NCBI RefSeq assembly: GCF_057098645.1 | Contig: NZ_CM169472.1 | DNA length: 64,000 bases | Reading direction: 5' to 3' (one strand) | Shown here: piece by piece, positions 15,790-53,241 of the stretch | Layout of the letters: each line of letters opens with the position of its first letter | Numbering within the stretch: position 1 is the first letter of the stretch | Notes under the pieces: generated by a model | What the model saw: only the letters and a program-made list of their open reading frames with translations | Told to the model about the DNA's origin: nothing | Database searches by the model: none | Translations under genes and position numbers: made by a program

Positions 15790-16905
15790 ATGTTCCCAAA
15801 AATAATGAATGATGAAAACTTTTTCAAAAAAGCGGCGGCGCACGGGGAGGAACCTCCTTTAACTCCTCAAAACGAACATCAGCGGTCCGGGCTGCGCTTC
15901 GCCCGTCGCGTCAGACTACCCCGTGCGGTTGGCCTGGCTGGCATGTTCTTACCGATTGCTTCAACGCTGGTTTCACACCCGCCGCCGGGCTGGTGGTGGC
16001 TGGTGTTGGTCGGCTGGGCGTTCGTCTGGCCGCATTTAGCCTGGCAGATAGCGAGCAGGGCCGTCGATCCGCTTAGCCGGGAAATTTACAACTTAAAAAC
16101 CGATGCAGTATTAGCGGGAATGTGGGTAGGCGTAATGGGCGTAAACGTGCTGCCTTCCACCGCGATGTTGATGATTATGTGTCTGAATTTGATGGGGGCA
16201 GGCGGCTCCCGTCTGTTTGTCGCGGGTCTGGTGTTGATGGTGGTTTCCTGCCTTGTCACCCTCGAGCTGACGGGCATTACCGTGTCGTTCAATAGCGCGC
16301 CGCTGGAATGGTGGCTCTCCCTTCCCATTATTGTCATTTATCCTCTGCTGTTTGGCTGGGTCAGCTACCAGACGGCAACCAAACTGGCGGAACATAAACG
16401 CAGGTTGCAGGTCATGAGTACCCGCGACGGCATGACGGGCGTGTATAACCGACGTCATTGGGAAACTATGTTACGCAATGAATTTGATAACTGTCGGCGG
16501 CATAATCGCGATGCAACGTTACTGATTATCGATATCGACCATTTCAAGAGCATCAACGATACCTGGGGCCATGATGTGGGCGATGAAGCGATTGTGGCGC
16601 TTACCCGACAGTTACAAATTACCCTGCGCGGTAGCGATGTGATTGGTCGGTTTGGCGGCGATGAGTTTGCGGTAATCATGTCCGGTACGCCAGCTGAGAG
16701 CGCCATTACCGCCATGTTACGGGTGCATGAAGGGCTAAACACGTTACGCTTGCCGAATACGCCACAGGTAACTTTACGGATTAGTGTGGGGGTTGCACCG
16801 CTGAACCCACAAATGAGTCACTATCGTGAGTGGTTGAAATCGGCAGATTTGGCGCTTTACAAAGCAAAGAAAGCCGGACGTAACCGCACCGAAGTGGCGG
16901 CCTGA
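15790..16905 (+). CDS. dgcC: Diguanylate cyclase DgcC (AdrA/YaiC), membrane MASE2 + GGDEF
   Basis: 371 aa; N-terminal membrane domain; C-terminal GGDEF domain with RFGGDEF motif visible. Confidence 0.9.
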   Translation: MFPKIMNDENFFKKAAAHGEEPPLTPQNEHQRSGLRFARRVRLPRAVGLAGMFLPIASTLVSHPPPGWWWLVLVGWAFVWPHLAWQIASRAVDPLSREIYNLKTDAVLAGMWVGVMGVNVLPSTAMLMIMCLNLMGAGGSRLFVAGLVLMVVSCLVTLELTGITVSFNSAPLEWWLSLPIIVIYPLLFGWVSYQTATKLAEHKRRLQVMSTRDGMTGVYNRRHWETMLRNEFDNCRRHNRDATLLIIDIDHFKSINDTWGHDVGDEAIVALTRQLQITLRGSDVIGRFGGDEFAVIMSGTPAESAITAMLRVHEGLNTLRLPNTPQVTLRISVGVAPLNPQMSHYREWLKSADLALYKAKKAGRNRTEVAA

Positions 16906-16921: not shown

Positions 16922-17731
16922 TCAGGATTTGCTGAGTTTTTCTGATTTTTCCATACACTTCGTCATCGCTTCGATCACTGCGGCACGGAAGCCTTTCTCT
17001 TCCAGTACGCGTACCGCTTCAATGGTGGTGCCTCCCGGTGAGCAGACCATATCTTTCAGTGCTCCCGGATGTTCTCCCGTTTCCAGCACCATTTTTGCGG
17101 AACCCATTACCGCCTGAGCGGCAAATTTATACGCCTGAGCGCGTGGCATCCCGCCCAGCACGGCGGCGTCGGCCATCGCTTCGATAAACATAAATACGTA
17201 GGCTGGCGAAGAACCGCTCACACCGACCACCGGGTGGATCATCGGCTCAGCAATCACTTCCGCTTCGCCAAAGCAGCGGAAAATATTCAGCACATCAGCG
17301 GTATCTTCTGGGGTTACCAGCGCGTTTGGCGTTACGGAGGTCATCCCGGCATTAACCAGCGCGGGAGTGTTCGGCATGGCGCGGATAATTTTCCGGTCAT
17401 GGCCCAGCGCGCGGGCAAGCTGGTCGAGTGTGATACCTGCAGCAATAGAAACGACCAGAGAGTCTTTATTCAGGCTGGAGGTGATTTCGCTAAGCACTTT
17501 AATCATGATGCCAGGTTTAACGGCGGCAAAAATGATGTCAGCGATTTGCGCCACTTCTTGCGCCGATTCTGCGGCGTTGATGCCGAACTGGTCATGCAGG
17601 GCGGCGACTTTATCCGGGGAGGGGGTGTATACCCAGATTTGCCCTGGAAGCACCTGACCGCTGGCAATCAGACCGCCGAGAATGGCTTTTCCCATATTGC
17701 CGCAGCCAATAAAACCGATTTTCTTTTCCAT
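16922..17731 (-). CDS. proC: Pyrroline-5-carboxylate reductase
   Basis: Start set at [20 protein letters not shown]... (269 aa); ORF-track 305 aa is over-extended. Confidence 0.92.
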
Positions 17732-36647: not shown

Positions 36648-36805
36648 TCCTTGCGTTCTGTAAGCCGGTTCAGGAGGAAATCCTGATCCGGCTATTCCGA
36701 AAGTTATCCGCCCCCGTCCTCCTCCCCCAAATATCCTTCAGATGATGAGTGATCCTGCATTAGGCTATGGCAAGGTGATCAGATTTTCATCACAGGGGAA
36801 TTATG

Positions 36806-38620
36806 ATGTTAAATGCATGGCACCTGCCGGTGCCCCCATTTGTTAAACAAAGCAAAGATCAACTGCTCATTACACTGTGGCTGACGGGCGAAGACCCACC
36901 GCAGCGCATTATGCTGCGTACAGAACACGATAACGAAGAAATGTCAGTACCGATGCATAAGCAGCGCAGTCAGCCGCAGCCTGGTGTCACCGCATGGCGG
37001 GCGGCGATCGATCTCTCCAGCGGACAACCCCGGCGGCGTTATAGTTTCAAATTGCTTTGGCACGATCGCCAGCGTTGGTTTACACCGCAAGGCTTCAGCC
37101 GAATGCCGCCGGCACGACTGGAGCAGTTTGCCATCGATGTACCGGATATCGGTTCACAATGGGCTGCGGATCAGATTTTTTATCAGATCTTCCCTGATCG
37201 TTTCGCCCGTAGTCTTCCTCGTGAAGCTGAACAGGATCATGTCTATTACCATCACGCAGCCGGACAAGAGATCATATTGCGTGACTGGGATGAACCGGTC
37301 ACGGCGCAGGCGGGCGGATCAACGTTCTATGGCGGCGATCTGGACGGGATAAGCGAAAAACTGCCGTATCTGAAAAAACTTGGCGTGACGGCGTTGTATC
37401 TCAATCCGGTGTTTAAAGCTCCCAGCGTACATAAATACGATACCGAGGATTATCGCCATGTCGATCCGCAGTTTGGCGGTGATGGGGCGTTGCTGCGTTT
37501 GCGACACAATACGCAGCAGCTGGGAATGCGGCTGGTGCTGGACGGCGTGTTTAACCACAGTGGCGATTCCCATGCCTGGTTTGACAGGCACAATCGTGGC
37601 ACGGGGGGAGCTTGTCACAACCCCGAATCGCCCTGGCGCGACTGGTACTCGTTTAGTGATGATGGCACGGCGCTCGACTGGCTTGGCTATGCCAGCTTGC
37701 CGAAGCTGGATTATCAGTCGGAAAGTCTGGTGAATGAAATTTATCGCGGGGAAGACAGTATTGTCCGCCACTGGCTGAAAGCGCCGTGGAATATGGACGG
37801 CTGGCGGCTGGATGTGGTGCATATGCTGGGGGAAGCGGGTGGGGCGCGCAATAATTTGCAGCACGTAGCCGGGATCACCGAAGCGGCGAAAGAAACCCAG
37901 CCGGAAGCGTATATAGTTGGAGAGCATTTTGGCGATGCACGGCAATGGTTACAGGCCGATGTGGAAGATGCCGCCATGAACTATCGCGGCTTCACATTCC
38001 CGTTGTGGGGATTTCTTGCCAATACCGACATCTCTTACGATCCGCAGCAAATTGACGCCCAAACCTGTATGGCCTGGATGGATAATTACCGCGCAGGGCT
38101 TTCTCATCAACAGCAACTGCGTATGTTTAATCAGCTCGACAGCCACGATACTGCGCGATTTAAAACGCTACTCGGTCGGGAGGTTGCGCGCCTGCCCCTG
38201 GCAGTGGTCTGGCTGTTCACCTGGCCTGGTGTACCGTGCATTTATTACGGTGATGAAGTGGGACTGGATGGCAAAAATGATCCGTTTTGCCGTAAGCCGT
38301 TCCCCTGGCAGGTGGAAAAACAGGATATGGCGTTATTCGCGTTGTACCAGCGAATGATTGCGCTGCGTAAGAAAAGTCAGGCGCTGCGTCGTGGCGGCTG
38401 TCAGGTGCTGTATGCGGAAGATAACGTGGTGGTATTTGTCCGCGTGCTGAATCAGCAGCGTGTACTGGTGGCAATTAACCGTGGCGAAGCCTGTGAAGTG
38501 GTGCTACCCGCGTCACCGTTTCTTAATGTCGTGCAATGGCAACGCAAAGAAGGCCATGGGCAACTGACAGACGGGATTCTGGCTTTGCCTGCCATTTCGG
38601 CTACGGTGTGGATGAACTAA
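36806..38620 (+). CDS. malZ: Maltodextrin glucosidase
   Basis: 604 aa from [12 protein letters not shown]...; GH13 alpha-amylase family; ORF-track start at 36803 is an equally possible adjacent ATG. Confidence 0.92.
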
Positions 38621-38807: not shown

Positions 38808-39866
38808 ATGACAATTTCAAATTCGAATTTATTAAAACCGTTTATTACTGGTTCTAAGTTGCTACCTTTTAAGGATGATGTCTTTTCTAAAACAGAAGAA
38901 CAATTTAAAAAAGCCCCCATGGCAAATCGCTTTTCATTTCCGGAAATGAAAACTTAGTAAACATTTCAGCGGAAAAAATCGATGAAATAAAAAATAGCAA
39001 AAATTTCTTTTCAAACATTGTAAATATAATAATTTTACTCATTAAGCATCCTGATAAAATTCTGCCTATTCTTCATGGTTGTCCTGCAGAGCCCATCGAA
39101 TTCATTAAGAATGCGAAACGAACGGGGCAATGGTCATATGAGATGACTGATAAGTACGGGCAGAGTATTGAAGTGTCCTATATTTTCACTGATACCATAG
39201 ATAATAAATCTGATGGAAAATTATGCTTAAAAATCTGTAACTCCTGCAACCAAAATGATTCTAGTACACATGAATATAAAATAGATCATCAACAGTTGAA
39301 AAATCACATAAAGCAACTTGAGGAGTGGGCTCTTCTTGAAAAGTTTTATGATAACAACGCTTATTATTCTAAACGTACAAAACAATTAGAGAAGAAAATT
39401 ACCGATGCGGGGTTTATAACAGGGAAGGTTAATGCCGAGAAGTTTAATGTAAAAGAGTTTAAAGACGATATAACCTCGATGCTTTGTGAACAGCCGCCCC
39501 TGCGTACACACCAGATTTCTTCATCCGGATACGTATCTGCAGATAAACTGCCCAAACTCTATGAGTTAAATTTGAAAGACGCGCAGAGAGATCTTAAAAC
39601 AACACCGGTTGACATCGATGGTGTCAGTTTAAAATTTAAAACTCGGGAAAGAATTGCAGAAGAAATTGCGAAAAAAACTGCGGGAAAAACTGCGGAAAAA
39701 AATTCGGAAATAATTGCGAAACAAAATGCGAATAGCATTGAGGAGAAGAATATTGAAAAAAAACAAGAAAGAAACAAATCCTGAAGATAATTTTGTCTTA
39801 AAATTCTCACAGGAAGAAATCAATGAGATGCTCCTGGATTACAGCGACGAAGAACAAAAAAATTAA
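38808..39866 (+). pseudogene. Accessory gene interrupted by two frameshifts at homopolymer tracts (would encode about 350 aa)
   Basis: ATG at 38808 with GGAG SD starts MTISNSNLLKPFITGSKLLPF... (frame 0). Reading continues without stop in frame 2 after the A6-G-C5 tract at 38907-38918, through the ORF-track 213-aa segment (39143-39784). It returns to frame 0 after the A8 tract at 39754-39761 and ends at 39866 (...FSQEEINEMLLDYSDEEQKN). Confidence 0.6.
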
Positions 39867-39898
39867 GACCTTTTTTCACTAGTGATCACATCTATTGT

Positions 39899-40276
39899 TT
39901 GTTCGATGCTTTTAGTCAGTGTTTGCATAATGTTGCTCGTGATGGCAGTCCACGGTATGCAGGTTTACTACAACAAATAGCATCCAAGTGTGCGATATTA
40001 CAAGATTTTGATCAACAATTGTTCTGGCGCACGTTTACAGGAGGGGGCCTCCATCGACATATCTCTGTGAAGAGCGAGCCAGAAAAGACAGATGTATGGC
40101 GATTCAGTACACAATTTGATTTTCCACATATAAATGAAAACGGAGAGTTGTCCAGAACGGTACTCATGTTCGAGGGGGTTGCTGAAAGCAACTTTAAAGA
40201 TATCGCCAATCATTCCAGCGAATGTTTTTCTTACCGTTGTTATGCCGCCCCGCTGGATGCGAATGCTAAAAAGTAA
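39899..40276 (+). CDS. Hypothetical protein (about 125 aa), start uncertain (TTG in ORF track)
   Basis: ORF with no ATG near its 5' end; AT-rich; no family recognised; may be a gene remnant. Confidence 0.3.
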   Translation: MFDAFSQCLHNVARDGSPRYAGLLQQIASKCAILQDFDQQLFWRTFTGGGLHRHISVKSEPEKTDVWRFSTQFDFPHINENGELSRTVLMFEGVAESNFKDIANHSSECFSYRCYAAPLDANAKK

Positions 40277-40296: not shown

Positions 40297-40878
40297 TCAG
40301 AGCGCCTTGCGTGACGCCTGCGCCATCATCCGCGGATAAAACTGCCAGAAGCGGGTTTCGAGGGCGGCATAATGTGCGTTTAAATCGTACCAGGAGTCAC
40401 GCAGGGCATCCAGACGTGGGCGACGGCTTGCCATGCCGTTTAACACGTTCTGGATGAAATCCATATCGCGATAGCGCACCAGCCACTGCTCTGACCACAA
40501 GTAATTGTTCAGATTGATAAAACGTGGCGGTGAGTCCGGCAAAATCGTCATCACTTGCTCGCGGGCATAACAGACAAATTCCTGTAGCGGAAAGTCCGGC
40601 GACAGCTGCGACCAGTGGCGGGAAAGAAAGTGATCCCACATGACATCCAGGGTAATAGGCGCAACGCGGCGCGTTTCACTACGAAACCATTCCCGTGCTT
40701 CGCGGACTTCCGGCAGATTGTCAGTCAATACGTCGATACGTCGATGCATATGAATGCCAGCCACGACGTCGGGCGGAAAACTTTCTTCAGGATTTCCGCG
40801 TACGAAATCAGCCAGCAAATTGCCGGAAAGCGAGCTTTCCGCGAGATGGGCTAAATGCAGGTGAGCTAAAAAATTCAT
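40297..40878 (-). CDS. acpH: Acyl carrier protein phosphodiesterase
   Basis: 193 aa, [25 protein letters not shown]... Confidence 0.92.
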
Positions 40879-46436: not shown

Positions 46437-46564
46437 TCAATTTCACGTTGATGTTGAAAATCCCGGTCAGAAGATCGGGATTTTTTTTGATGTATGGAGA
46501 TTGCGAAAATCCCCGCATCTTGGGAAACTGCGCGTAACCCTACATTTCATCCAGGTAACTTTTC

Positions 46565-53146: not shown

Positions 53147-53241
53147 CTGTTAAAGTAAAACCCGACATCACCGAATATACTATGCGGCGATATTTCAAGG
53201 TGTATCTTTGTCACTCATAATTCAATGACACTGAAATATCG

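Follow-up and report, generated by a model that had tools for sequence, protein, structure and literature searches.

Between malZ and acpH of an Escherichia coli chromosome there is a gene whose reading frame falls apart into four small pieces, and one of the breaks coincides with a run of eight adenines. Is such a break the mark of a gene in decay, of a reversible switch, of an error in the assembly, or of a frameshift that is bypassed in expression? The DNA on which this question was studied, a stretch of 64,000 bases referred to here as the window, comes from an E. coli chromosome of the O145:H28 type and is collinear with the tauB-cyoE region of O145 strain RM9872. The answer that we consider very probable is decay into a pseudogene, step by step, through replication slippage in poly-A tracts.

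The gene occupies positions 38808–40276 on the plus strand. It is an orphan "hypothetical protein" gene, treated as a single CDS by RefSeq, and in the window it is a pseudogene with three poly-A frameshifts. It lies in a low-GC islet of 1.68 kb flanked by malZ upstream (36803–38620, plus strand) and by acpH downstream (40297–40878, minus strand), and both of these genes are intact. The GC content of the islet, taken over segments of 300 bp, is 30–41% versus ~54% in the flanks and 50% in the entire window, and the orphan gene itself is composed of 36% GC and 36% A. The islet was found in 1127 of 5426 complete E. coli genomes, at the same site every time, so that about one fifth of the complete genomes carry the gene. 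In most carriers the allele is intact, with 481–497 codons. Across the alleles, the protein length ranges from 473 to 497 aa owing to the copy number of an A-rich in-frame tandem repeat of 12 bp (4 aa: AEEI/AKKT/AGKT/AEKN...), which is located at 39638–39732 on the plus strand (Tandem Repeats Finder, period 12/24/48); the repeat region varies by allele by −48, −36, −24, −12 or +24 bp.

Searches of the orphan protein against Pfam, NCBIfam, PADLOC, PHROGs and PDB sequences gave no significant match. An exhaustive HMMER scan of 1.84 billion representatives retrieved a single full-length cluster; the 19 other hits were short sequences at least 66% identical where they matched, and the scan brought up no distant homologue. 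All the hits bearing an organism name come from Escherichia or Shigella and, judged by these sequence matches, the gene is restricted to Escherichia/Shigella. Identity among 17 aligned intact proteins is 89–98%, and an AlphaFold2 model obtained from a 17-sequence alignment was too poor for use (mean pLDDT 38, pTM 0.30). Pairwise dN/dS values between alleles are mostly 0.5–0.8 (range 0.36–1.75), which argues for weak constraint on the gene; nevertheless, its frame of 1.47 kb has been kept open in 36%-GC DNA across many lineages. A scan of the islet for promoters and terminators was uninformative, with one promoter-like site versus 4.5 expected, and a literature search on the locus tags and accessions of the orphan gene and on pseudogenes of O145 H28 found nothing relevant.

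The tract lengths were compared by aligning the window with 12 other genomes, nine of which carry intact alleles. The frame-breaking differences of the window in this alignment are exactly three, and each of them falls in a poly-A tract. The run of eight adenines, designated site 2, had already been noticed in the initial annotation; it exists as claimed, at 39756–39763 on the plus strand, the coordinates given there (39754–39761) being two positions too low. It is an A8 that results from the gain of one base (+1) over A7 at codon 317, and it leads to a TGA stop at 39782–39784. A7 is present at this site in all nine intact alleles, and A8 occurs in the alignment only in the window, RM9872, RM13514 and UTME-3. 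The alignment places the change from A7 to A8 precisely where the frame had been proposed to switch, and the frame assignment also holds, since the orthologues that encode a continuous protein carry A7 and not A8. Deleting one A at site 2 brings the translation into agreement with the intact proteins (...IEKNKKETNPEDNF...).

Besides this break, the initial annotation had counted one more frameshift in the gene. Both are real, and a third had been missed. Site 1, at 38907–38912 on the plus strand, is an A6 that has lost one base (−1) relative to the A7 of all 12 compared genomes; it affects codon 34 and is followed by a stop at 38955–38957. Site 3, the one missed, is located at 39856–39862 on the plus strand, where the window has A7, also −1, instead of the A8 of the 12 compared genomes; it affects codon 350 and is followed by a TAA stop at 39864–39866. 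At sites 1, 2 and 3, in this order, all the intact alleles have A7/A7/A8, O145:H28 has A7/A8/A8, and the window has A6/A8/A7. Each change affects a mononucleotide run by a number of bases that is not a multiple of three, and each has its own premature stop; because of the stops at 38955, 39782 and 39864 the lesions do not compensate one another. Three repairs, that is, adding one A at site 1, removing one A at site 2 and adding one A at site 3, restore an ORF of 1470 bp coding for 489 aa, and S96P and V414G are the only differences between the repaired protein and its intact O145-type counterpart.

The pieces of the gene appear as four ORFs on the plus strand. The first one, of 49 aa (38808–38957), consists of 33–34 authentic N-terminal codons followed by an out-of-frame tail. 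The authentic frame is taken up again from ~38913 and contains the second ORF, of 213 aa (39143–39784), which is present as initially described and ends at the stop created by the A8. The third ORF, of 50 aa (39714–39866), is authentic only from 39764 to ~39855 (...NKKETNPEDNF...EEQK) and ends in ...FSQEEINEMLLDYSDEEQKN (...DYSDEEQKN). The initial annotation was right in taking it for the authentic frame downstream of the A8, open to 39866, and mistaken in reading it as an acidic C-terminus: the segment is internal, because site 3 breaks the frame and ~139 homologous codons follow beyond it, to 40276. The A8 does not lie near the 3′ end of the gene either, as had been thought, being at codon 317 of 489. 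The fourth ORF, of 125 aa (39899–40276), represents the authentic C-terminal part, with the authentic frame starting from ~39863.

The same A8 lesion is found in the pseudogenes I3Y_RS02000 of O145 RM9872, ECRM13514_RS02200 of O145:H28 RM13514 and ACET1N_RS21045 of UTME-3, all flagged as "frameshifted" by RefSeq/PGAP. They share with the window the malZ-acpH locus, an allele 99.7–99.8% identical and the +1 frameshift at A8, which shortens the product from 489 to 325 aa; the GenBank product of the RM13514 copy, ECRM13514_0442, has this length. The A8 frameshift is specific to a lineage and already annotated, and it represents ordinary gene decay. What the window has in addition to those pseudogenes are the two −1 deletions at sites 1 and 3 and the substitutions S96P and V414G, none of which is found in any complete RefSeq genome. 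The intact orthologues WP_021577076.1 (EC1515, 489 aa), WP_000155944.1 (O157:H7, 481 aa, the length also annotated in strain F8797), WP_096098488.1 (ETEC4075, 497 aa) and WP_112865097.1 (RM12275-C1, 489 aa) are the same gene at the same position. Unlike the window they have a single continuous frame, tract states A7/A7/A8 and differing numbers of the 4-aa repeat; continuous frames are also present in AR_0067, WP7-S17, AR0349, CUVET20-416 and 23a. In its one-base changes confined to A runs of at least seven, in the premature stop just downstream and in the accumulation of more lesions after the first one, the window's copy resembles homopolymer-slippage pseudogenes in general, and there is nothing distinctive about it.

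In a gene with 36% A, base composition alone could well produce one A8 (shuffles, P = 0.24). Runs of at least A7 are enriched in the orphan gene, with 4 observed versus 0.76 expected (shuffles, P = 0.006). The evidence for the frameshift is the comparison with the intact alleles; the presence of the tract does not supply it. Only two homopolymers of at least eight bases exist in the window, the A8 and a T8 at 46481–46488, in the secF-yajD intergenic region. At the spot of this T8, O157:H7 F8797 and contig L027 bear an inserted toxin-antitoxin pair of the ParD/ParE type, and the window is without it.

We think that these differences can be ordered in the following way. A slippage from A7 to A8 (+1) at 39756–39763 would have arisen in the O145:H28 lineage, in which A8 is essentially fixed; it shifts the frame at codon 317 and cuts the orphan protein from 489 to 325 aa. 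In the sub-lineage of the window, the gene, already inactivated, would have taken the changes from A7 to A6 at 38907–38912 and from A8 to A7 at 39856–39862, and would also have acquired the two substitutions. Site 2 is A7 in every divergent allele and still A7 in backgrounds L028–L031, which are at least 99.96% identical to the window over ~21 kb; therefore, A8 is the derived state and a recent one. Moreover, A8 is much commoner than the A6 of site 1 and the A7 of site 3, and the examined carriers of these two states on an O145-type allele (L015, L016 and L018) all have A8 as well. Because of this wider spread, and because every examined carrier of the deletions has A8, the simplest order is A8 first and then both deletions. 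That A8 was the first event is thus suggested solely by how widely each state is distributed. Replication slippage is the probable mechanism, and the orphan gene is presumably non-functional in the strains with A8. The population comparison of tract lengths that had been recommended at the outset gives A7 in the intact alleles and, among complete genomes, A8 confined to the O145:H28 clade. Ongoing decay via slipped-strand mispairing, one of the two explanations offered then, is the best one.

Over the 64,000 bases, 18 SNPs and two single-base indels separate the window from RM9872, and both indels are in the orphan gene. The gene holds two of the 18 SNPs, versus 0.41 expected (Poisson P ~0.06), which fits with relaxed constraint. 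Fifteen SNPs of the window are shared with none of the seven O145-clade complete genomes compared, with 13 sites in 3230–27255 and the other two at 39092 and 40047. The window has at 40047 a G shared with O157, which first suggested a basal position for the window, an idea that was overturned with more taxa; this G is more likely a mutation of the window's own lineage, because all others, including the divergent backgrounds, have T. No complete RefSeq genome has the triple frameshift of the window either, so that its O145:H28 sub-lineage is represented by drafts only. One draft of this sub-lineage, GCA_024357405.1 (L018), has an 8-bp deletion in acpH, at the equivalent of window positions 40728–40735 and at the direct repeat ATACGTCG/ATACGTCG; the acpH gene is not called there.

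An alternative to decay is that the poly-A tracts are reversible on/off switches, operated by high-frequency slipped-strand mispairing as in a contingency locus. The several A7–A8 tracts, enriched as indicated above, the in-frame 12-bp repeat, whose copy number varies, and the fact that all three lesions are changes of tract length speak for it, and still we think it very unlikely. The tracts are stable: A8 is present in 24 of the 25 genomes of the clade, where a contingency locus would be expected to show heterogeneity of tract length among very close relatives, and A7/A7/A8 is kept in all nine diverse intact alleles. The 91-mer with the A6 of site 1 of the window has an exact match in 0 of 1126 complete genomes, and its site-3 sequence with A7 in 0 of 1070. 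Tracts of A7–A8 are short for poly-A phase variation, and with three lesions no single event could switch the copy of the window back on. A possible reversion is offered by RM12275-C1, annotated as intact, which has A7 and groups by derived SNPs at 16348 and 18430 with its nearest relative RM8995-C1, which has A8 like the rest of that SNP group. This A7 reflects either a true reversion or a fault of the assembly. The RM12275-C1 genome, itself assembled from PacBio data, shows one more homopolymer deletion of the singleton kind at 2035, and we rejected it as proof of reversion because deletions of this kind break housekeeping genes in its sister PacBio assemblies. A version in which the malZ-acpH orphan is a switch gene driven by slippage of low frequency, with O145:H28 caught in the OFF state and the sub-lineage of the window locked in it, has likewise a slim chance of being correct. 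If it were, the conserved A7/A7/A8 tracts would allow lineages to turn the gene off and on, the 12-bp in-frame repeat would vary the length of the protein, and the change from A8 to A7 in RM12275-C1 might illustrate the switching.

The other explanation offered in the initial annotation, homopolymer-prone sequencing error, competes with stepwise decay in a different manner, as it would attribute all the tract lengths, the A8 included, to homopolymer miscalls in the assembly of the window. We regard it as extremely improbable, and it is already largely refuted. The exact 96-mer with A8 is present in 25 of 5426 complete genomes, every one of them of the O145:H28 clade and obtained by several laboratories on different platforms, and its A7 version is present in many other lineages; exact copies of the 325-aa protein that the A8 allele encodes are recorded on 937 contigs. 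An identical error in 25 independently sequenced complete genomes, with the product on so many contigs, is not what the A8 can be. The A6 and A7 states of the window do occur in no complete genome, as miscalls might, and an error-rich metagenome contig (L017) reads A6 by error. However, three independent draft assemblies (L015, L016 and L018) have A6 at site 1 and A7 at site 3 in addition to A8, and since the two extra deletions recur alongside A8 in independent drafts we take them as real. The combination A6/A8/A7 is seen exactly in GCA_015672775.1, in GCA_024357405.1 (L018) and in the Logan assembly SRR32768194, which is 100% identical to the window across 5150 bp. The truncated products are recorded too: the 49-aa one on 28 contigs, the exact 213-aa one on 21 contigs, with annotation in O145:H28 strains EC142526 and EC151747, and the exact 125-aa one on 2 contigs. 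The 49-aa and 213-aa products arise only from the A6 and A7 states of the window, and annotated O145:H28 isolates from Japan are among their carriers. An artefact would be expected in a single assembly only, next to further homopolymer indels scattered at random; here the states are reproducible across assemblies, the window has no further indel versus RM9872 in 64 kb, and its nine other runs of at least seven bases are unchanged relative to that strain. As the same states appear in independent assemblies and no other indel of the window is found versus RM9872, all three tract changes are inherited mutations. The case shows as well that looking for exact truncated products in independent assemblies separates homopolymer frameshifts from sequencing errors when reads are not at hand.

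Two other lines were set aside as arguments. The clustering of both indels in the orphan gene does not discriminate against sequencing error, as the gene holds five of the 14 ancestral runs of at least seven bases in the window and the corresponding probability, (5/14)², is ~0.13. Truncated forms from other lineages (P0132, P0157, P0173, P0174 and P0178) hint at other frameshifts, and they were excluded as evidence since each is found on very few contigs, P0132 on one and P0157 on two.

Homopolymer miscalls do exist in the PacBio assemblies of the clade. Singleton one-base deletions were seen at the equivalents of window positions 17621, 25286, 26622 and 48010 in RM8995-C1, at 17621 in RM12522-C8, and in a C5 run, the one at 2035 mentioned above, in RM12275-C1. 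These O145 assemblies are listed as "complete" in RefSeq; the deletions fall in G5, C5 and A5 runs, and PGAP calls frameshifted proC, mak and araJ in them (RM8995-C1 and RM12522-C8). They are probably assembly errors, and O145 PacBio genomes should be used with caution as references for homopolymer states.

That the A8 is bypassed in expression by transcriptional slippage or ribosomal frameshifting, with some full-length protein being made, has hardly any probability, and programmed recoding is not supported. Long A runs are known sites of RNA-polymerase slippage, which can rescue frameshifted genes (PMC1088944; see also PMC5009743), and transcriptional-slippage sites such as 9A/9T in IS elements and T. 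thermophilus dnaX likewise have a poly-A run at the frame junction (PMC1088944). In contrast to those sites, the run of the window is shorter, with 8 bases, and thus below the ~9 nt at which selection against slippage-prone runs becomes evident in many genomes (PMC1088944); its state is derived and its junction is not conserved, being limited to one clade, whereas the intact orthologues pass through A7 in one frame. Rescue would require a ribosomal shift of +1 (or −2) or the loss of one A from the RNA, a direction for which the slippery sequence is not of adequate type and length, as the common −1 shift on A-AAA-AAA fails to restore the frame. Besides, the A6 and A7 frameshifts of the window would each need a separate rescue, making three in all.

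With stepwise decay as the reading of the locus, it should be annotated as one pseudogene at 38808–40276 with three frameshifts rather than split into four short ORFs. As markers, A8 of the O145:H28 lineage and A6/A8/A7 of one of its sub-lineages, the tract states could serve for typing. That a major Shiga-toxin-producing lineage has lost the orphan gene hints only weakly that the gene is dispensable, and in our opinion the significance beyond annotation is little.

Two minor observations concern other parts of the window. At ~53240–54800 on the minus strand, between pgpA and yajO, there is a gene to which the RM9872 annotation gives the name EspY3 (type III secretion effector, pentapeptide-repeat protein) and which constitutes another accessory islet within an otherwise core region. 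The autotransporter gene ehaB, adjoining hemB, is intact in the O145 genomes (window ~3650–6540) and "frameshifted" in O157:H7 F8797 (L022 43317–46245).
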